Of a stretch of DNA of 7,140 nucleotides, positions 1 to 7,140 are shown in pieces. Below the pieces are notes generated by a model. It was not told the origin of the DNA. It ran no database searches and saw only the letters and a list, made by a program, of their open reading frames with translations. The stretch's first letter is position 1; each line of letters begins with the position of its first letter. The stretch comes from a virus (taxonomy: Duplodnaviria; Heunggongvirae; Uroviricota; Caudoviricetes). The position numbers were made by a program, and so were the translations under genes. The stretch lies in the IMG/VR virus record IMGVR_UViG_2695420514_000013, positions 1-7,140 of that record, one strand, 5' to 3'.

Positions 1-1
1 T

Positions 2-337
2 TTACGTGGTGAGTTTATTCGTGGCTGGGATGACGGGCGTGGAGCTGACAGTGGTCGGGGATTATTAAGCTTTCAAAAAGCCACTCTGGTTGAAAGTTTT
101 GGTCTGGTCAGGTCACCAACCACTGGCTCTTATCGTCTGGTTACCAGACCGACAGAAACTGTTTCTGATAATACGTCTAACTATATGACGACTGATTATG
201 ATTCCCGTGAAGGTTTATATTCCCCTGCAACAGCATACCCCTCTATCGAATTGCCACCAACTGGAGCAGGCGCAGGGGCTGGTTTTAGGGTTCGACCAAG
301 GAATATTGCATTTAACTATATTGTGAGGGCTGCATAA
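2..337 (+). CDS. Phage side tail-fibre protein, C-terminal (variable) part; 5' end lies upstream of the window
   Basis: Only one + frame (phase 2) is open from the window edge to TAA at 335-337. That stop overlaps the ATG of the downstream tfa gene (TAATG), the usual coupling of tail-fibre and assembly genes. Product inferred from position upstream of tfa and inside the Pin-invertible segment; no diagnostic motif seen. Confidence 0.55.
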   Translation, partial: LRGEFIRGWDDGRGADSGRGLLSFQKATLVESFGLVRSPTTGSYRLVTRPTETVSDNTSNYMTTDYDSREGLYSPATAYPSIELPPTGAGAGAGFRVRPRNIAFNYIVRAA

Positions 338-939
338 TGGATAACGCCATATTAAATAGCGAGATTATCGCCACCAAAGCAGGGAATATTACCGTCTATA
401 ACTATGATGGTGAAACTCGAGAATATATTTCCACTTCAAATGAATATCTTGCTGTTGGCGTCGGTATCCCTGCATATTCCTGTTTAGATGCCCCTGGCAC
501 ACATAAGGCGGGTTATGCTATCTGCCGTTCGATGGATTTAAACTCATGGGAATATGTGCCAGACCATCGCGGTGAAATCGTCTATAACACCGAAACGGGA
601 GACGCCAAAGAAATCACAACTCCGGGTGATTACCCCGAAAAAACAACCACTATCGCCCCGTTAACGCCATACGATAAATGGGATGGTGAGAAATGGGTGA
701 CGGATACCGAGGCACAGCATAGCGCCGCAGTAGACGCGGCAGAAGCACAACGTCAGTCACTGATTGATACTGCAATGGCTTCCATTAGTCTGATTCAACT
801 GAAATTGCAGGCCGGACGGAAGTTGACGCAGGCAGAAACAACCCGACTTAACGCCGTGCTGGATTACATTGACGCGGTGACGGTAACAGATACCAGCACC
901 GCGCCGGATGTCATCTGGCCTGAACTGCCGGAGGCGTAG
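337..939 (+). CDS. tfaE: Tail-fibre assembly protein (Tfa chaperone), e14 TfaE-like, 200 aa
   Basis: Complete ATG-to-stop ORF, 200 aa. Central SW-x-x-V-x-DHRG-x-x-VY motif and C-terminal DTSTAPDVIWPELP tail typical of the lambda Tfa / Mu U family. Stop-start overlap with the upstream tail-fibre ORF. The symbol rests on recollection of E. coli e14 TfaE (same length and N-terminus), not on a search. Confidence 0.85.
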   Translation: MDNAILNSEIIATKAGNITVYNYDGETREYISTSNEYLAVGVGIPAYSCLDAPGTHKAGYAICRSMDLNSWEYVPDHRGEIVYNTETGDAKEITTPGDYPEKTTTIAPLTPYDKWDGEKWVTDTEAQHSAAVDAAEAQRQSLIDTAMASISLIQLKLQAGRKLTQAETTRLNAVLDYIDAVTVTDTSTAPDVIWPELPEA

Positions 940-1354
940 GCCATTCAATATCTGGAGCACTGGAAGTATCGACCAGTTCCAGTGCGTCCAGATAATCCAA
1001 CCACAAATTATATTGCGCCAGTTCCTCACCTTTCAGACGACCAATAGCGGCTTTACCGGGCCATTGCTTACTGTTCATGTGTTCGTTGGCCTGATTAAGC
1101 AATAATTGTCTTTCTGATTCTGCCTGTTGAATAAGTTCTTCATGTGATGGTTGAGGTATTTCAGCCCATGTGGGAAAACCATTTACCCCTGCAACTCGGA
1201 TTTTCCCTTGTGGCGGTTTCGCCATATATTTTACAGAAATGTTATCAGGAATATCTAATGCATCAGCGGGCCATGTTCCATTTACTTCATAAGTATTTTT
1301 TAAATTAACAGCATAAAATGCATTTTCCGAAGGGGAATAAATATATTGATTCAT
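911..1354 (-). CDS. Second tail-fibre assembly protein (alternative Tfa of the invertible segment), 147 aa
   Basis: Complete ORF on the - strand. C-terminus DTSSAPDIEWPTPP parallels the C-terminus of the + strand Tfa. Its 3' end overlaps the + strand tfa by 29 bp (911-939). Its ATG is 1 nt after the stop of the upstream - strand tail-fibre cassette (TAA-T-ATG). Confidence 0.8.
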   Translation of the reverse strand: MNQYIYSPSENAFYAVNLKNTYEVNGTWPADALDIPDNISVKYMAKPPQGKIRVAGVNGFPTWAEIPQPSHEELIQQAESERQLLLNQANEHMNSKQWPGKAAIGRLKGEELAQYNLWLDYLDALELVDTSSAPDIEWPTPPAVQAR

Positions 1355-1355
1355 A

Positions 1356-1718
1356 TTATCTTCCTATTGCAATAATCATAGTTCCATACAAACCATTTCC
1401 GGTTGATACTTTTAAGGTTACTGATGTCCTTGTTGTCGTGTACCCCATAAGTTTAAAGGTCGGAGCAGCCGTTAATGTGCCATCAGACCATAAGGCACTA
1501 ACAGCAAGTGCACCTGAAGGAAATGCAATAGGGAAATTACCAGTAGTTCCGTTAGTGTCCGCCCCATAAACATTCATCGAAAACATTTGGACAATATGAC
1601 CACTTGGTAACTGAAACCAGTTTTTGCCAGATGGGAATGCAGACATATCTGGTATCTGATTTAAATCTCCCAAACCAACGTTTATGAAAATGCAGAAATA
1701 ACGAGCAAATGGCATCAT
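1356..1718 (-). CDS. Alternative tail-fibre C-terminal variable cassette (silent in this orientation; no constant N-terminal part attached)
   Basis: The - strand frame is open from the stop at 1740-1742 down to TAA at 1356-1358 and reads through the crossover site (FINVGLG). It is G/T/S/N-rich like fibre tips. The ATG at 1718 is probably fortuitous; functionally the cassette starts at the crossover site (about 1690) and would be expressed only after inversion fuses it to the upstream constant region. Confidence 0.6.
   Translation of the reverse strand: MMPFARYFCIFINVGLGDLNQIPDMSAFPSGKNWFQLPSGHIVQMFSMNVYGADTNGTTGNFPIAFPSGALAVSALWSDGTLTAAPTFKLMGYTTTRTSVTLKVSTGNGLYGTMIIAIGR
1665..1690. other. 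Site-specific inversion crossover site (pix-like, hix/gix family), right boundary of the invertible tail-fibre segment
   Basis: 26-bp sequence ATCTCCCAAACC-AA-CGTTTATGAAAA: two imperfect inverted 12-bp half-sites around a central AA dinucleotide. By eye it matches about 7-8 of 12 positions per half-site with hixL/gix as I recall them. It sits 55 bp upstream of the pin start, where such sites lie in Mu, P1 and e14. Confidence 0.55.
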
Positions 1719-1744
1719 TCCTGCTTTTGTCAGGGGGATCTACC

Positions 1745-2299
1745 ATGCTTATTGGCTATGTACGCGTATCAACAAATGACCAGAACACAGATCTACAACG
1801 TAATGCGCTGAACTGTGCAGGATGCGAGCTGATTTTTGAAGACAAGATAAGCGGCACAAAGTCCGAAAGGCCGGGACTGAAAAAACTGCTCAGGACATTA
1901 TCGGCAGGTGACACTCTGGTTGTCTGGAAGCTGGATCGGCTGGGGCGTAGTATGCGGCATCTTGTCGTGTTGGTGGAGGAGTTGCGCGAACGAGGCATCA
2001 ACTTTCGTAGTCTGACGGATTCAATTGATACCAGCACACCAATGGGGCGTTTTTTCTTTCATGTGATGGGTGCCTTGGCTGAAATGGAACGAGAACTGAT
2101 TGTTGAACGAACAAAAGCTGGACTGGAAGCTGCTCGCGCACAGGGACGAATTGGTGGACGTCGTCCCAAACTTACACCAGAACAATGGGCGCAGGCCGGG
2201 CGATTAATTGCATCAGGAGTTCCTCGCCAGAAGGTGGCGATTATCTATGATGTTGGTGTGTCAACTTTGTATAAGAGGTTTCCTGCAGGGGATAAATAA
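1745..2299 (+). CDS. pin: Serine-recombinase DNA invertase Pin (Hin/Gin/Cin family), 184 aa
   Basis: N-terminus MLIGYVRVSTNDQ (catalytic Ser in the VRVSTNDQ motif), resolvase catalytic domain and C-terminal HTH (GVPRQKVAIIYDVGVSTLYKRF). AGGGGG Shine-Dalgarno 7 nt upstream of ATG 1745. The track ORF starting at 1709 adds 12 residues with no ribosome-binding site and is less likely. Confidence 0.95.
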   Translation: MLIGYVRVSTNDQNTDLQRNALNCAGCELIFEDKISGTKSERPGLKKLLRTLSAGDTLVVWKLDRLGRSMRHLVVLVEELRERGINFRSLTDSIDTSTPMGRFFFHVMGALAEMERELIVERTKAGLEAARAQGRIGGRRPKLTPEQWAQAGRLIASGVPRQKVAIIYDVGVSTLYKRFPAGDK

Positions 2300-2405
2300 A
2301 GTTAAAGACACTTTGTGTACAAAAGAAAGTAAAACAACAGCAACTTGTTGCAATTTTATCATTAAAAGTAGTATTGTCGTGAAAAATTGATTAAAGATTA
2401 ATATT

Positions 2406-3239
2406 ATGCATGTTTTTGATAACAATGGAATTGAACTGAAAGCTGAGTGTTCGATAGGTGAAGAGGATGGTGTTTATGGTCTAATCCTTGAGTCGTGGGG
2501 GCCGGGTGACAGAAACAAAGATTACAATATCGCTCTTGATTATATCATTGAACGGTTGGTTGATTCTGGTGTATCCCAAGTCGTAGTATATCTGGCGTCA
2601 TCATCAGTCAGAAAACATATGCATTCTTTGGATGAAAGAAAAATCCATCCTGGTGAATATTTTACTTTGATTGGTAATAGCCCCCGCGATATACGCTTGA
2701 AGATGTGTGGTTATCAGGCTTATTTTAGTCGTACGGGGAGAAAGGAAATTCCTTCCGGCAATAGAACGAAACGAATATTGATAAATGTTCCAGGTATTTA
2801 TAGTGACAGTTTTTGGGCGTCTATAATACGTGGAGAACTATCAGAGTTTTCACAGCCTACAGATGATGAATCGCTTCTGAATATGAGGGTTAGTAAATTA
2901 ATTAAGAAAACGTTGAGTCAACCCGAGGGCTCCAGGAAACCAGTTGAGGTAGAAAGACTACAAAAAGTTTATGTCCGAGACCCGATGGTAAAAGCTTGGA
3001 TTTTACAGCAAAGTAAAGGTATATGTGAAAACTGTGGTAAAAATGCTCCGTTTTATTTAAATGATGGAAACCCATATTTGGAAGTGCATCATGTAATTCC
3101 CCTGTCTTCAGGTGGTGCTGATACAACAGATAACTGTGTTGCCCTTTGTCCGAATTGCCATAGAGAATTGCACTATAGTAAAAATGCAAAAGAACTAATC
3201 GAGATGCTTTACGTTAATATAAACCGATTACAGAAATAA
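2406..3239 (+). CDS. mcrA: McrA, 5-methylcytosine-dependent type IV restriction endonuclease (HNH nuclease), 277 aa
   Basis: Complete 277-aa ORF. C-terminal HNH/zinc-finger motif CENCGK...EVHHVIPLSSGGADTTDNCVALCPNCHRELH. Sequence and length match my recollection of E. coli K-12 McrA. AT-rich relative to its neighbours and located immediately after pin, as in e14. Confidence 0.95.
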   Translation: MHVFDNNGIELKAECSIGEEDGVYGLILESWGPGDRNKDYNIALDYIIERLVDSGVSQVVVYLASSSVRKHMHSLDERKIHPGEYFTLIGNSPRDIRLKMCGYQAYFSRTGRKEIPSGNRTKRILINVPGIYSDSFWASIIRGELSEFSQPTDDESLLNMRVSKLIKKTLSQPEGSRKPVEVERLQKVYVRDPMVKAWILQQSKGICENCGKNAPFYLNDGNPYLEVHHVIPLSSGGADTTDNCVALCPNCHRELHYSKNAKELIEMLYVNINRLQK

Positions 3240-3377
3240 AATTATTTATTAAAGTCACATTTAAGACGTAATACCCTACAGGGTAAAAATTTTTTCTGAT
3301 CTTAACTTCTGCAAATGTTAACTGCTATTTTTATGCTAAAAATGGTTATCAAAACTCAAAAACACATGTTTATAATC

Positions 3378-3414
3378 AATGAGTTATAGAAATGCTAAGG
3401 GCTAATGAGTTATA
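3378..3414. repeat. Two direct copies of AATGAGTTATA (3378-3388 and 3404-3414) in the spacer between mcrA and the icd remnant
   Basis: Exact 11-bp direct repeat, 26-bp period, about 60-95 bp from the icd junction. Function unknown; the position fits arm-type recombination-protein binding sites of an att site. Confidence 0.35.
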
Positions 3415-3472
3415 TGCAAATTAGTAAAATTATGTTGCTATGTCAAATAGTTACGATTTAGTCATCTAACTA

Positions 3473-3586
3473 ATGCTGCGCCATATGGGTTGGACTGAAG
3501 CAGCTGACCTGATTGTTAAAGGTATGGAAGGCGCTAAACTGCTGAAATGTTCAGAGTTTGGTGATGCGATCATCGAAAATATGTAA
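3473..3586 (+). pseudogene. icdC: icdC: displaced 3' remnant of isocitrate dehydrogenase gene icd (prophage attR side)
   Basis: In-frame translation [37 protein letters not shown] matches the Icd C-terminus as I recall it, except that 17 codons (INAKTVTYDFERLMDGA) are missing. No promoter or N-terminal coding sequence precedes it; an in-frame stop lies at 3467-3469. Confidence 0.85.
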
Positions 3587-3639: not shown

Positions 3640-3652
3640 GATGATGTAAAAT

Positions 3653-3674
3653 CTTCCCCAAAACTTCCCCAAAA
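3653..3674. repeat. Tandem duplication of an 11-bp unit, CTTCCCCAAAA x2 (plus a partial third CT)
   Basis: Read directly: cttccccaaaa-cttccccaaaa-ct, in the non-coding gap between the icd remnant and the hydrolase gene. Confidence 0.6.
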
Positions 3675-3719
3675 CTGGCTATTTTCTATGCTGTTTTGAT
3701 ATCTACGATAACCCGGTAT

Positions 3720-4640
3720 TTACAGAGTTTCCTCAAAGAATGGAGCTAATACTGAAATCGCTTCAGCCACATAGGCTTTGCCGTCATAGAGGTCCATATG
3801 GTTAGCGCCTTCAACAATGTGATAGCGTTTATCCTGACTTGATGCTCGATCGTACAGGTCGTCACTCATCCATTTACTTCCTGCCAGACTGCCCGCCACA
3901 ATCTGCATCGGCTGAGTCAGGTACACTTCCGCCATATGGTAAGCATCATAGGTAATCATCTGGTTAAGGCTGCGCAAAGTAGCGTAACCCGGTGCTGTTG
4001 GATACTGCGCGCGAGAGGTGTGGTAATACTCCCAGGCCTGACGCAGTTCTTCGTTCGGCGCATCGGACTCTTTCATTGGCGCCAGTGGCATAATGGCGTA
4101 TTCTCCGCTGCTAATATCGCTGGTTCGGGCGTTTGAACCCGCTTCAATGTGTGGCAGAGCATCAATAGATTTCACATTGTTTTCCCAACCATTGCGGAAC
4201 ATCGAACCAATATTGACCGCACTAACGGTGCCGATAGCCTTGATGCGGCGATCCTGAATTGCAGCATTGGCTGTATATCCTGCACCAGCACAAATTCCCA
4301 TCGCACCAATTCGGGCATTGTCGACATAAGAAAGTGTTGTCAGGTAATCAATTACGGCACTGACGTCTTCAGTACGAATGTATGGGTTTTCTAACTGACG
4401 CGGCTCGCCGCCGCTTTCACCTTGATAAGATGCGTCATAAGCAATAGTGACAAATCCCTTTTCCGCCAGTTTTTCGGCATAGGTTCCGGCCGTTTGCTCT
4501 TTAACGCCCCCACCAGGGTGAGATACCACAATTGCCGGATACTGACGGGTTTCATCAAATTGGGGAGGGAAATAGATCACAGCAGACAAAGAGATGGTTG
4601 GATTATTGCTGTTAGTGAAGCTGACTTTATTATTCATCAT
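3720..4640 (-). CDS. Alpha/beta hydrolase of the dienelactone-hydrolase type (putative Cys-His-Asp hydrolase), about 306 aa
   Basis: Long - strand ORF. G-I-C-A-G nucleophile-elbow motif with Cys (GAMGICAGAGY) and a C-terminal His (EGANHMDLYD), as in dienelactone hydrolases. Start placed at the ATG at 4640 because a GAGGAA Shine-Dalgarno lies 4-6 nt upstream; the track start at 4652 has none. Length and the divergent LysR partner recall the E. coli ycjY/ycjZ pair, but that is not verifiable here. Confidence 0.8.
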   Translation of the reverse strand: MMNNKVSFTNSNNPTISLSAVIYFPPQFDETRQYPAIVVSHPGGGVKEQTAGTYAEKLAEKGFVTIAYDASYQGESGGEPRQLENPYIRTEDVSAVIDYLTTLSYVDNARIGAMGICAGAGYTANAAIQDRRIKAIGTVSAVNIGSMFRNGWENNVKSIDALPHIEAGSNARTSDISSGEYAIMPLAPMKESDAPNEELRQAWEYYHTSRAQYPTAPGYATLRSLNQMITYDAYHMAEVYLTQPMQIVAGSLAGSKWMSDDLYDRASSQDKRYHIVEGANHMDLYDGKAYVAEAISVLAPFFEETL

Positions 4641-4740
4641 TCTGTTCCTCATGGCGTTGCCGGTTCGTTTTAACGGCTGGTGATATCACTATAGATATTG
4701 ATCATTAAGTTGATTAGACCCAAAATCATGATTGGACCTA

Positions 4741-4752
4741 TCATTTAAATGA
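4741..4752. promoter_or_regulatory. Perfect 12-bp palindrome TCATTTAAATGA in the divergent intergenic region (candidate LysR-type operator)
   Basis: Perfect dyad 26 bp upstream of the LysR start, embedded in ATC-N8-GAT. Additional dyads lie at 4681-4688 (TGATATCA) and 4701-4714 (ATCA-N6-TGAT). Possible -35 TTGGAC (4732-4737) and -10 TAATAG (4754-4759) flank it. Function is inferred, not shown. Confidence 0.3.
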
Positions 4753-4777
4753 TTAATAGATTGTATAGAGATACTGA

Positions 4778-5677
4778 ATGAAGCGTGAAGAAATCGCTGA
4801 TCTGATGGCATTCGTCGTCGTTGCAGAGGAGCGTAGCTTCACTCGCGCAGCAGTCCGCTTGGGCATGGCGCAGTCAGCTTTAAGCCAGATAGTGCGTCGT
4901 ATAGAAGAACGATTGGGATTGCGGCTCCTGACGCGAACCACGCGTAGCGTTGTGCCAACTGAAGCGGGCGAACATCTTTTATCTGTTCTTGGCCCGATGT
5001 TGCATGACATAGATTCAGCCCTGTCATCCCTGAGTGAGCTGCAGAATCGCCCATCCGGGACAATACGTATTACTACAGTAGAACATGCAGCAAAGACGAT
5101 ACTGCTACCAGCCATGCGCACATTCCTGAAATCGCATCCTGAAATTGATATTCAGCTTACCATTGATTATGGTTTGACCGATGTCGTTTCTGAACGTTTT
5201 GATGCAGGTGTCCGTCTGGGAGGGGAGGTGGATAAAGATATGATTGCCATTCGAATCGGGCCTGATATACCAATGGCTATTGTTGGCTCACCGGATTATT
5301 TTTCCCGCCGAAGCGTTCCAACGTCAGTGTCACAATTAATAGACCATCAGGCCATTAATTTGTATCTTCCCACATCGGGTACAGCGAATCGCTGGCGATT
5401 AATACGTGGTGGACGTGAGGTTCGTGTTCGCATGGAAGGTCAGCTTTTACTGAATACGATAGATCTGATCATTGATGCTGCAATTGATGGGCACGGATTA
5501 GCGTATCTACCTCATGATCAGGTTGAGCGGGCGATTAAAGAAAAAAAACTGATACGTGTTCTGGATAAATTCACACCAGACTTACCCGGTTATCACCTGT
5601 ACTATCCACACCGTCGGCATGCTGGCTCGGCATTCTCCTTATTTATAGATAGGCTGAAGTATAAAGGCGCTGTTTAG
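4778..5677 (+). CDS. LysR-type transcriptional regulator, 299 aa
   Basis: N-terminal winged-HTH signature (FVVVAEERSFTRAAVRLGMAQSALSQIVRRIEERLGLRLLTRTTRSVVPTEAG) followed by a substrate-binding domain of typical LTTR length. Transcribed divergently from the hydrolase, the usual LTTR-target arrangement. Confidence 0.9.
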   Translation: MKREEIADLMAFVVVAEERSFTRAAVRLGMAQSALSQIVRRIEERLGLRLLTRTTRSVVPTEAGEHLLSVLGPMLHDIDSALSSLSELQNRPSGTIRITTVEHAAKTILLPAMRTFLKSHPEIDIQLTIDYGLTDVVSERFDAGVRLGGEVDKDMIAIRIGPDIPMAIVGSPDYFSRRSVPTSVSQLIDHQAINLYLPTSGTANRWRLIRGGREVRVRMEGQLLLNTIDLIIDAAIDGHGLAYLPHDQVERAIKEKKLIRVLDKFTPDLPGYHLYYPHRRHAGSAFSLFIDRLKYKGAV

Positions 5678-6262
5678 TTTTGCTTGATGATACGTTGATT
5701 TCATTTTTCCCTTAACGTGTTCACAGTTCCTTTCGACGTTTTAGTTATTTTTTCTTCTTCATACAATGGCGGCAATTACTTTCTTTTATTTTTATTATCG
5801 TGGATGTTAATACCAGAACTTCTGACCCTACGATGCATGTTTTTTGTATATTATCTGTATCAGGCAAAGAGTGGCGCAAATTGTGGATGGTGGGGGAGTA
5901 TAACCCGGAAGAGTTTACATTTTTGAACGGTATTTTTTGTAATGTAAAGGAAAATCTGTGTCGGAATGATCGCTATTTGGGTGCAGATGGCAGAAGGAGT
6001 GGGGAAATAAATAATAATTCTACGATGATATTATTTGGTTGTATCGGTTAGTGATGAACTCAGGTCGCCAGATGCTGCACTATCTCCGGCGTGGATGATG
6101 CTTTCAGTCTCAGACTTACTGACATCGCTCAATGGGATTCTTTCGTCCTCAGTGAGCGCATCGAAACCATAACTAACCAATTGAATAGCCTGCAAGAGTA
6201 TGTGAGATCACAGTGTTCATATTAGAAAAGTCTTATCATAAGATTTTTTATATGGATGCATT

Positions 6263-6649
6263 ATGTCTCAATACGCTCGTGCCGCTTTAATTGCTTATAA
6301 TTTGGTTGCCGATAAATCAATGTCTCCTCGTGAGGCTTGGGACGCCGCTGTTGCTAAGGTTACAAAAAGCGAATCCTCAAGAAAGAAGGGATGCCCAAGG
6401 GCAACGTTTCTCGCCTTGGCGGATTGCGGTTATCTGAAGAATGTAGAACCACAGTATGGGGAGAAAAAAGGCGGTAAGTTGTACCAAAGGGCGGTTGAAG
6501 TTGCGAATCTGATTCTTGATTTACCCGGAATTAGCAAAGCTGAGTTAGTTGATAAAACTTGCTATAAAGACGGGCAAGGGTCTTATGACATTGTGCTAAC
6601 ACTCGCTCAGTGCGGATTTCTCCAACGCCCTCAGCAAGATATTAAGTGA
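6263..6649 (+). CDS. Hypothetical protein, 128 aa, internally duplicated, four Cys; no family recognised
   Basis: Clean ATG-to-TGA ORF with non-repetitive, mid-GC codon composition, unlike the AT-rich DNA upstream. Weak GGA ribosome-binding site 6 nt upstream. Followed by a hairpin plus T-run. Two homologous halves (see findings). Confidence 0.65.
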   Translation: MSQYARAALIAYNLVADKSMSPREAWDAAVAKVTKSESSRKKGCPRATFLALADCGYLKNVEPQYGEKKGGKLYQRAVEVANLILDLPGISKAELVDKTCYKDGQGSYDIVLTLAQCGFLQRPQQDIK

Positions 6650-6654
6650 TTTAT

Positions 6655-6682
6655 GGCCTCGCTGTTAGCGGGGTTTTTTCAT
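6655..6682 (+). terminator. Putative rho-independent terminator after the 128-aa ORF
   Basis: GC-rich stem CCTCGC / GCGGGG (one G-U pair) with loop TGTTA, followed by TTTTTT at 6675-6680, 6 nt after the stop codon. Confidence 0.5.
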
Positions 6683-6688
6683 ATCTGA

Positions 6689-6820
6689 ATCTCACCACCG
6701 GATGCACTGACTGGCTTCGTGGCTGTTTTCAACAGTGAGGAGGCATCGTGGCATCTCGTTGAAGACCCGCGGGGTAAGACTGTCAGTGGCGTGGCTTCAG
6801 GTAATGCGCTATCCCTTTAA
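6689..6820 (+). pseudogene. Internal fragment of a tail-fibre assembly (tfa) gene, about 43 codons, truncated at both ends
   Basis: Open frame [43 protein letters not shown] carries the Tfa core motif SW-x-x-V-x-D-x-RG-x-x-V also present in the intact Tfa at 337-939 (NSWEYVPDHRGEIVY). It resembles the central part of lambda/Rac-type Tfa as I recall it. No start codon; bounded upstream by the stop at 6686-6688 and a terminator, downstream by a stop and hairpin. Confidence 0.6.
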
Positions 6821-6822
6821 AA

Positions 6823-6847
6823 GGGAGGTTATACCTCCCTTTCTTTG
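6823..6847. terminator. Bidirectional hairpin terminator between convergent genes
   Basis: Perfect stem GGGAGG (6823-6828) / CCTCCC (6834-6839) with loop TTATA, flanked by A-run on one side and TTTCTTTG on the other. The stop codon of the - strand acetyltransferase lies in the loop. Confidence 0.6.
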
Positions 6848-7083
6848 CAAACGTTAACTTTCTTAGTATAGCAAATCGAATTTGAGGGTATATCCTTATT
6901 TACAAATGTAAAAGCACCAATTTTTACATTATCACCTATAGTAATGTTATCTGCGATAATACAGGAGTTCGCTCCAATATTTACATTGTCACCAATGCTA
7001 ATTCTATTAGTATTGTTGTTTTTTAAGCCAATTGTTGTGTTTTGCCTTATATTGAAGTTTCTACCAATTGTGGCATATTGATC
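6829..7083 (-). pseudogene. Hexapeptide-repeat (left-handed beta-helix) acetyl/acyltransferase, 3' portion; interrupted by in-frame TAG at 7084-7086, frame continues to the window edge
   Basis: The - strand translation shows tandem [LIV]-G-x-x-x-x hexads (TIGRNF NIRQNT TIGLKN ... SIGDNV NIGANS ... ITIGDN VKIGAF), typical of LacA/Maa/WbbJ-type transferases. Very AT-rich, Asn-rich codon usage. No ATG/GTG/TTG occurs in frame between the TAG and the stop, and the same frame stays open from the TAG to position 7140, so the gene looks disrupted by a single amber codon. Confidence 0.55.
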
Positions 7084-7140
7084 CTACCCATGTAATATGG
7101 ACACAAGCCTAAGCGAGGTTCTGATTTTCAAATTGTTCCG

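Follow-up and report, generated by a model that had tools for sequence, protein, structure and literature searches.

The locus described here raises the question whether a short open frame that resembles the central part of a tail-fibre-assembly (Tfa) protein is a chance match, a small gene in its own right or the remainder of a larger one, and, in the last case, how it came to lie where it does. The window, i.e. the whole stretch of 7,140 nucleotides that was analysed, carries this frame close to its right end. According to the original prediction, a frame of roughly 43 codons reproduces the central Tfa motif, possesses neither a start nor an N- or C-terminal part, is bracketed by two terminator hairpins and represents what is left of a second, lambdoid-type tail-fibre module. 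We read it as a dead lambda-type tfa fragment, here called the relic, within a heavily decayed prophage downstream of icd in an Escherichia other than E. coli, and assign to this reading a probability of about 0.88.

Identity and extent of the tfa-like frame

The features on which the argument draws are the following, with the strand given where one is assigned:

6084-6225, plus strand: 3' fragment of Rz together with an Rz1 fragment in an overlapping frame, left end of the prophage remnant (Pfam Phage_lysis)
6263-6649, plus strand: intact DUF6979 gene, 128 aa (Pfam PF22399, E 1.5e-28)
6655-6681, plus strand: intrinsic-terminator-like hairpin (6655-6675) with T-run, 3' of the DUF6979 gene (terminator scan)
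6689-6820, plus strand: flagged open frame, 43 codons followed by TAA
6693-6697: left deletion junction CACCA, a 5-bp microhomology common to both parental sequences (overlap of homology blocks)
6693-6812, plus strand: tfa relic, 40 codons collinear with residues 46-85 of lambda Tfa and TfaR, without start and without either terminus
6813-6820: right junction, from the end of tfa homology (6812) to the start of homology to the acetyltransferase module (6821) (alignments)
6820-6842: perfect 10-bp hairpin AAAGGGAGGT-TAT-ACCTCCCTTT (fold)
6829-7078, minus strand: C-terminal 82 codons of a hexapeptide-repeat acetyltransferase gene, "sat" (Pfam Hexapep, E 4e-9)
7079-7140: terminal sequence of an IS3-family insertion sequence that cuts sat (85-91% matches to IS3-like ends)

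The open frame is limited by an in-frame TGA stop codon at 6686-6688 and by the TAA at 6818-6820. Its demonstrably tfa-derived portion, 6693-6812 (120 nt, 40 codons), aligns without a gap to annotated tfa genes, with which it shares 80-84% nucleotide identity in blastn (E 1e-26 to 1e-32). At the protein level, BLASTP aligns the relic with TfaR of K-12 at TfaR residues 45-85, where 32 of 41 residues (78%) are identical (pairwise E 6e-21), and a tblastn search with the 43 amino acids against 2.3 Gb of phage records matched 68 records (best E 2e-13), among them lambda orf-194/tfa at 22105-22227. When positions 6600-6900 were used as query, matches were obtained in 3,540 of 5,426 complete E. coli genomes; 29 of the 30 matches listed lie in an annotated tail fiber assembly gene and one in a DUF6979 gene. 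Within the relic, the core of highest confidence is 6711-6812, and positions 6693-6710 agree with tfa at 12 of 18 sites. The existence of a frame with a Tfa motif is thereby confirmed. The search of the translation returned significant similarity to Tfa, so the doubt voiced in the original prediction, that the resemblance might be a chance match of a short motif, falls away: the nucleotide and protein E values, together with the gap-free collinearity over 40 codons, rule it out and leave it a practically negligible probability.

The frame is also as incomplete as had been proposed. Tfa residues 1-45 and 86-194 are missing from it, and compared to a complete gene, with a start codon, about 150-200 codons and a C-terminal region, it offers 40 homologous codons only. 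The sole start-like codon in the frame is a GTG at 6719 (giving a 33-aa ORF, 6719-6820), upstream of which no Shine-Dalgarno sequence is visible. Moreover, the relic does not lie directly downstream of a tail-fibre gene; its upstream neighbour is the DUF6979 gene with its terminator, and no tail-fibre gene was found between 3240 and 7140. A Pfam search with the 43-aa translation yielded no family at E<=1 and did not reach the gathering score of Caudo_TAP (PF02413), a domain that the two intact tfa genes of the window match with 109 and 116 bits. This can readily be explained by position: the Caudo_TAP model begins at residue 78 of the 200-aa Tfa of the window, in which the relic corresponds to residues 52-90, so that most of the relic sits N-terminal of the domain. 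The Pfam result is therefore no argument against homology to Tfa. Judged by its sequence, the relic is a genuine, non-functional internal fragment of a tfa gene of the lambda/Rac/Qin type.

The original prediction further described the relic as a distinct relative of both intact tfa genes in the window. This description holds for the 200-aa Tfa (337-939), to whose homologous stretch the relic is 28% identical (E 3e-4), and does not hold for the 147-aa Tfa (911-1354), with which no similarity was detectable. Recombination between the relic and the intact invertible segment, also proposed, is unsupported, as no exact match longer than 10 nt exists between the relic and positions 1-2000 of the window, and the best blastn E value is 0.36.

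Could the frame nevertheless do something on its own, as a small functional peptide (the 33-aa ORF beginning with GTG) or as a small RNA? The frame is indeed open, and the flanking hairpins could delimit a short transcript. A scan found no promoter-like site between 6271 and 6986, however, the upstream hairpin is the predicted terminator of DUF6979, and the GTG codon lacks a visible ribosome-binding sequence as stated above. Rfam returned nothing at gathering thresholds for the whole window, and the relic folds no better than shuffled sequences (z -0.62), on which ground an RNA role was rejected. In addition, amino-acid-changing SNPs segregate in the population, e.g. at 6739. We thus consider a functional product very improbable; the relic would be silent and without function.

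Surroundings of the relic and its copies in the population

The left part of the window (1-3240) is the end of an e14-type element, 95-96% identical to E. coli e14, and contains the 3' end of a tail-fibre gene, two convergent tfa genes, a second fibre end, a pin-type invertase gene and mcrA. It is followed by a displaced 3' fragment of icd (3473-3586) and by a ycjY-like hydrolase gene and a pgrR-like LysR regulator gene (3720-5677). The AT-rich tract at 5775-6084 had been taken as evidence of a lost phage module. This view could not be upheld, given that the tract shows no match to phage sequence and carries the C-terminal fragment of a host-type ycgJ gene.

Similarity to prophages begins at 6084. 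From there to 6697 the window shows 91-92% nucleotide identity to a block annotated as lysis protein plus DUF6979 in many E. coli prophages. The Pfam Phage_lysis match at 6091-6222 (E 1.5e-8) covers profile positions 85-125 of 126, i.e. the last third of the Rz model, and the Rz1 match in the overlapping frame reaches 26.2 bits, slightly below the cutoff. The gene upstream of the relic, which had been regarded as an orphan, is DUF6979, a gene found between the Rz lysis gene and terminase in E. coli lambdoid prophages. In the near-complete lambdoid prophage of E. coli SE15 it follows essD-rrrD-lysis protein and precedes terminase, with about 22 kb of head and tail genes between DUF6979 and the tail-fibre region. 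In the partly deleted prophage of E. coli M18, the lysis gene is followed by DUF6979 - lom - tail fibre - tfa, all on one strand. The identical DUF6979 protein is recorded in 147 blocks of the assembly collection. DUF6979 is thus an accessory gene of the lambdoid late region that has been retained in the remnant.

The Rz/Rz1 fragment, DUF6979 and the tfa fragment all lie on the plus strand and in the same order as in the SE15 and M18 prophages; no integrase gene was found between 3600 and 7140. Taken together, a whole prophage appears to have decayed here, beyond a tail-fibre module alone. Of the predicted second lambdoid-type tail-fibre module that was deleted down to a fragment, the lambda-type tfa relic and its late-region flanks stand, the loss has to be extended to the entire prophage, and the lambdoid origin of the module is likely rather than certain.

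To the right of the relic, the acetyltransferase gene runs towards it, its translation ending in KEREV directly before the stop codon at 6829-6831 (minus strand). The gene is intact, with 180 aa, in 8 of the 10 sister assemblies listed, but it too is in decay, being interrupted in L009, in L013 and, by the insertion sequence, in the window. Collinearity with all sister loci ends at 7078, and the IS3-family element is present in none of them. The sister loci, which were recovered via the DUF6979 protein, read phoQ-phoP-purB-hflD-mnmA-nudJ-rluE-icd, followed by the hydrolase and LysR genes; beyond sat the sister genomes carry nleG (about 0.5 kb past sat), queH and ompT. In E. coli DEC9B, nleG homologues (84% nucleotide identity) start straight after the tail-fibre genes of a lambdoid prophage. 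The phoQ-icd stretch is just 92.4% identical to every E. coli genome, and the source must therefore be an Escherichia outside E. coli. [quoted passage not shown] Considering both the divergence of phoQ-icd and the presence of nleG, the source species is probably E. albertii.

Thirteen further copies of the locus, from 10 assemblies and 3 metagenome contigs (97.6-99.9% identical to the window), share both junctions of the relic without change, and the relic occurs in them with or without the e14-type element. All 13 carry the same remnant, and no intact, intermediate or empty version of the prophage at this site was found among them. The population variants for which the original prediction had proposed to look are, within the relic, SNPs in the diverged copies. 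The 10 assemblies show almost no variation over 6084-6828; they were picked for an identical DUF6979 protein and are biased toward close relatives. Among the diverged copies, the relic carries 3 SNPs in 120 nt (6711, 6739 and 6790; 2.5 per 100 nt) and DUF6979 carries 7 in 387 nt (1.8 per 100 nt). Given the selection bias and a relic SNP density in diverged metagenome copies that is at least that of DUF6979, a special constraint on 6084-6828 was rejected. At position 6739 the copy L056 keeps the T of the tfa consensus (Asp) where the window has G (Glu), so that the Glu of the window most likely arose after inactivation.

The pattern of substitutions points in the same direction. Relative to the closest tfa gene, the relic has amino-acid changes in 10 codons and synonymous changes only in 6. 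The amino-acid changes include His to Pro in DHRG, and peculiar residues are found in DALTG, EDPRG and TVSG. In functional tfa genes, by contrast, the protein is almost invariant over this stretch and differences are nearly all synonymous. Fixation of the remnant across the copies and the lack of constraint on the relic are direct observations. Scans of viral contigs (IMG/VR) for relic-specific 23- and 26-mers gave 0 matches, i.e. no phage with the odd residues of the relic; a scan of genome contigs with the junction 22-mer likewise gave 0 matches, and one with the DUF6979 protein returned only a locus of Salmonella diarizonae.

Junctions, hairpins and possible courses of decay

Nucleotide alignment, the approach suggested in the original prediction, maps the endpoints of the relic to 6693-6697 on the left and 6813-6820 on the right. 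On the left, the match to what follows DUF6979 in E. coli prophages runs up to 6697 (...CTGAATCTCACCA), and the match to tfa sets in at 6693 (CACCACCAGAT...). Downstream of DUF6979, the E. coli prophages read ...CATATCTGAATCTCACCA|TGCATATC, the tfa genes at the matching point read ...GATATTG|CACCACCAGATATT, and the window reads ...CTGAATCT-CACCA-CCGGATGC across the junction. Since the two homology blocks overlap in CACCA, the crossover is placed at 6693-6697. Such an overlap is the signature of an illegitimate, microhomology-mediated deletion, a mechanism that we infer from the sequence. Positions 6700-6710 match tfa unusually poorly (about 6 of 11 nt differ), and the left junction could be nearer to 6711 than to 6693. 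On the right, the similarity to tfa extends to 6812, which corresponds to codon 85/86. Citrobacter phage phiNP and plasmid pPSS-10_3 each have an intact tfa gene that is followed, within a few bases of its stop codon, by the hairpin seen here at 6820-6842; the event on the right should therefore have removed about 325 nt, i.e. the last ~108 codons.

The two hairpins that bracket the relic are real and stable, as had been proposed, and their role as terminators is predicted. The upstream hairpin (6655-6675), followed by TTTTTT, has a folding energy of -12.3 kcal/mol (z -3.25) and is conserved in E. coli prophages. For the downstream hairpin (6820-6842), energies of -14.8 kcal/mol on the plus strand and -16.4 kcal/mol on the minus strand were obtained (z -3.8 and -3.25, respectively). 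The stop codon of sat straddles the last base of its stem and its loop (6830-6832). The terminator scan did not call this hairpin because its T-runs are partly inside the stem; it is likely a bidirectional terminator.

Based on these junctions, the following course of decay can be proposed. The ancestral order on the plus strand would have been Rz/Rz1 - DUF6979 - terminator - (terminase, head, tail, side-tail-fibre) - tfa - hairpin - acetyltransferase (convergent) - nleG. One illegitimate deletion mediated by CACCA would have joined the spacer after the DUF6979 terminator to tfa codon 46, at the cost of some 20-25 kb of morphogenesis genes. A second event would have taken tfa codons ~87-194, stopping a few bases short of the hairpin after the gene, and a third truncation would have cut the left side of the prophage inside Rz. 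The survivors with open frames would be accessory or cargo genes, namely DUF6979, the acetyltransferase (in most strains) and nleG, and the tfa fragment would be a neutrally drifting passenger between two terminators. The homologies, junction positions and collinearity are observed; the order, number and mechanism of the events are reconstructed, and the size of the lost segment is estimated from relatives at other sites.

The main alternative concerns the origin of the module to the right of the left junction. The relic and the acetyltransferase may stem from a non-lambdoid phage (a P2-like, P1-like or phiNP-like myovirus), in which case the locus would be a composite joined by illegitimate recombination. 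In the collections searched, the convergent arrangement of tfa and acetyltransferase was found only in non-lambdoid elements: the baseplate-bearing phage phiNP, the plasmid pPSS-10_3, on which phage genes for head, holin and tail fibre are present, and an E. coli E110019 prophage whose genes include those for tail protein I, tail fibre and tape measure. As in the window, the acetyltransferase gene of all three is convergent and lies directly after tfa; unlike in the window, tfa is intact. The acetyltransferases of phiNP and pPSS-10_3 show 80-83% nucleotide and 84% protein identity to that of the window (pPSS-10_3, 83% of nucleotides over 258 nt; phiNP, 80% over 540 nt and 83.8% of the protein), and both elements also share its hairpin. 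E110019 has the same arrangement with merely a 59-nt, 81% patch of acetyltransferase similarity, and the tfa gene of its prophage is of the lambda type and, at 84% identity to the relic, constitutes the best full-length match. A hairpin scan of IMG/VR viral contigs yielded 31 loci, 3 of them with sat, and both sat contigs that hold a tfa gene have the phiNP type.

Set against this, the order and orientation of relic, DUF6979, Rz and nleG match those of lambdoid prophages exactly. The relic is close to tfa genes of the lambda/Rac/Qin type, whereas the tfa genes of phiNP and pPSS-10_3 belong to a different subtype: that of pPSS-10_3 differs from the relic at 56 of 123 nt (about 54% identity), and blastn found no match between the relic and a tfa gene of phiNP. 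Furthermore, tail-fibre modules are known to pass between these phage groups (references in PMC3945230), so that a lambdoid phage with such a module would be unsurprising. We therefore regard a composite of two elements as unlikely, albeit deserving of some weight, and a lambdoid ancestor that carried the tfa/acetyltransferase module as the likely and simplest reading.

A different question is whether the relic, whatever its origin, is kept because it serves as a patch of homology. Through relaxed homologous recombination, in which stf/tfa regions of 88-95% identity take part, phage lambda picks up DNA from the defective prophages Rac and Qin (PMC3945230). Along these lines, incoming lambda-type phages might recombine with the relic, with a second crossover in nleG or in DUF6979/Rz, and thereby exchange the acetyltransferase/nleG cargo or rebuild the prophage. 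The relic and common tfa genes share two 28-nt exact stretches, and homology patches lie on either side in phage order (Rz-DUF6979, 91%; nleG, 84%). Recombination of the relic with incoming lambda-type phages is thus conceivable but would be inefficient. The 120 nt at 80-84% stay well under the identities documented in PMC3945230. A double crossover in Rz/DUF6979 and the relic would, moreover, delete the morphogenesis genes of the phage. The relic shows no excess conservation, and no recombinant phage with relic-specific variants was found in IMG/VR. As usable homology does not imply retention for that use, we judge maintenance of the relic as a recombination site to be improbable.

Comparison with known systems

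With the relic read as a dead fragment in a decayed prophage, the locus is a new example of known prophage debris and contains no new mechanism or gene family. Its value lies in its being a clean, dated example of a prophage whittled away with its cargo genes kept, in which the junctions are mapped to within a few bases. The sequence from 6084 onward should be annotated as prophage-derived, and the remnant may serve as a stable lineage marker.

The closest parallel is provided by DLP12, a cryptic lambdoid prophage of K-12, which likewise contains tfa fragments left after internal deletion of the whole head and tail region. There, a fragment of the terminase large subunit gene is fused directly to a tfa fragment, and a second tfa fragment is also present; PGAP labels both as "tail fiber assembly protein, incomplete", and they are presumably the fragments named tfaD and tfaX. 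Of the two, the first begins at Tfa residue ~49 (IPAGFVAV...), about 10 nt from the start of the relic, and is 83% identical to it at the nucleotide level. In both cases cargo follows, i.e. appY and ompT in DLP12 and acetyltransferase, nleG, queH and ompT at the relic locus. The differences are equally clear: the C-terminal part of the gene is fully preserved in the first DLP12 fragment, whereas the relic is limited to 40 internal codons; what adjoins on the left is a piece of terminase in DLP12 and, at the relic, the spacer that follows DUF6979; and the two lie at different chromosomal sites. Descent of the relic from the DLP12 junction was rejected, given the different left partners and the fact that the relic retains tfa codons 46-48, which the DLP12 fragment lacks; owing to these three codons the two deletions are regarded as independent events.

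The near-coincidence of the 5' breakpoints (Tfa codon 46 in the relic, codon 49 in the DLP12 fragment) could be taken to indicate a preferred point of breakage or recombination at the edge of the widely shared N-terminal 45 residues, with such fragments acting as landing pads for the exchange of cargo (acetyltransferase, nleG). Two random breakpoints in a 582-nt gene would fall this close by chance in roughly 4% of cases. We therefore treat the proximity as a curiosity and not as a finding, and give a preferred breakpoint little credence.

The functional relatives of the relic are lambda Tfa (orf-194), TfaR (Rac) and TfaQ (Qin), which show 78% amino-acid identity to it over residues 45-85 and 82-84% nucleotide identity. 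Unlike the relic, these are complete genes of ~191-194 aa directly downstream of stf, and the relic replaces residues that are invariant among the functional tfa genes compared, including the His of DHRG.

Finally, the arrangement of the cargo recalls the exchangeable effector loci that Tobe and colleagues reportedly described in 2006 for lambdoid prophages of attaching-and-effacing E. coli, where effector genes are said to lie just downstream of tail-fibre genes. The likeness consists in the position of nleG downstream of the tfa relic in the sister genomes, as it follows the tail-fibre genes in DEC9B. The difference is that the carrier phage is here reduced to scraps and that the acetyltransferase gene is placed between relic and nleG, so that the nleG locus of this species would sit in a dead element of the lambdoid type.

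Loss of the acetyltransferase gene adjoining the tfa relic

The acetyltransferase cargo gene (minus strand, 6829-7078) adjoins the tfa relic across the 6820-6842 hairpin, and in the window it is disrupted by the following element:

7079-7140: terminal part of an insertion sequence of the IS3 family, TGATCCTACCC...

Comparison with the 13 sister loci, i.e. the other copies of the remnant, shows that these are collinear with the window up to 7078 and not beyond, and that the IS3-family end is present in none of the 13. The insertion at 7079 is strain-specific.

The gene also varies in three of the sister genomes. In L012, the loop of the 6820-6842 hairpin (window 6830-6832) is inverted from TAT to ATA (L012 positions 10568-10570). 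Since the acetyltransferase stop codon (6829-6831) overlaps this loop, the flip abolishes the stop, and the frame becomes longer by about three codons (KEREV* to KEREVIPP...). In L009 and L013, the frame (about 10567-11109, corresponding to window 6829 onward) is disrupted; here the longest open frames comprise 116 and 119 amino acids, compared to 180-193 elsewhere. Taken together with the IS insertion in the window, the broken frames in L009 and L013 indicate that loss of this relic-adjoining cargo gene is under way by more than one route.

Variation of the e14-type element

Apart from the cargo gene, the left part of the window varies among the sister genomes as well. Loci that are nearly identical in other respects differ in whether they contain the e14-type element (window 1-3586; compared in L006 and L008-L013). 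At icd, L011 has a small element of another kind, with an integrase and a GIY-YIG protein. In L014, the GIY-YIG gene takes the place of the window's mcrA. Locus comparison further revealed that the tail-fibre segment of the element (window 1-1662) is inverted in L007 and L014 and direct in L015, with the orientation switch point located between window 1662 and 1666, just 5' of the invertase gene. The opposite orientations fit a population in which Pin inverts the segment or has recently done so.

Sequences between the icd fragment and the phage remnant

Two further features were located in this region:

3644-3676: short direct repeat, CTTCCCCAAAA CTTCCCCAAAA, read from the sequence alone
within 5800-6051: fragment comprising the C-terminal part of a ycgJ-like gene (match to positions 45-87 of the 87-position Pfam YcgJ model, E 1.4e-7)

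The direct repeat lies immediately 3' of the icd-fragment terminator, between the end of the E. coli e14/icd homology (3639) and the onset of ycjY homology (3720). From there, the hydrolase and LysR genes adjoining icd (3720-5775) show ~95% identity to E. coli ycjY-pgrR. In annotated E. coli strains, the matching pair sits not beside icd but at the ycjY-pgrR locus, which is roughly 190 kb away from icd on the K-12 map. Two matching places occur in most E. coli genomes, which suggests that the icd-adjoining pair is a paralogous or relocated copy in the source species. The ycgJ-like fragment, called as ORFs of 54 or 72 amino acids in sister genomes, is placed in the AT-rich stretch that separates the LysR gene from the phage remnant.

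Comparison of the tfa breakpoints with DLP12

In the DLP12 locus of E. coli K-12 (L023), the terminase'-'tfa junction (position 9117) falls at about Tfa codon 49, while the left end of the relic (window 6693) falls at codon 46. The two breakpoints are independent of each other and lie about 10 nt apart. Such proximity, which has a chance probability of about 4%, may reflect either coincidence or a breakpoint hotspot.
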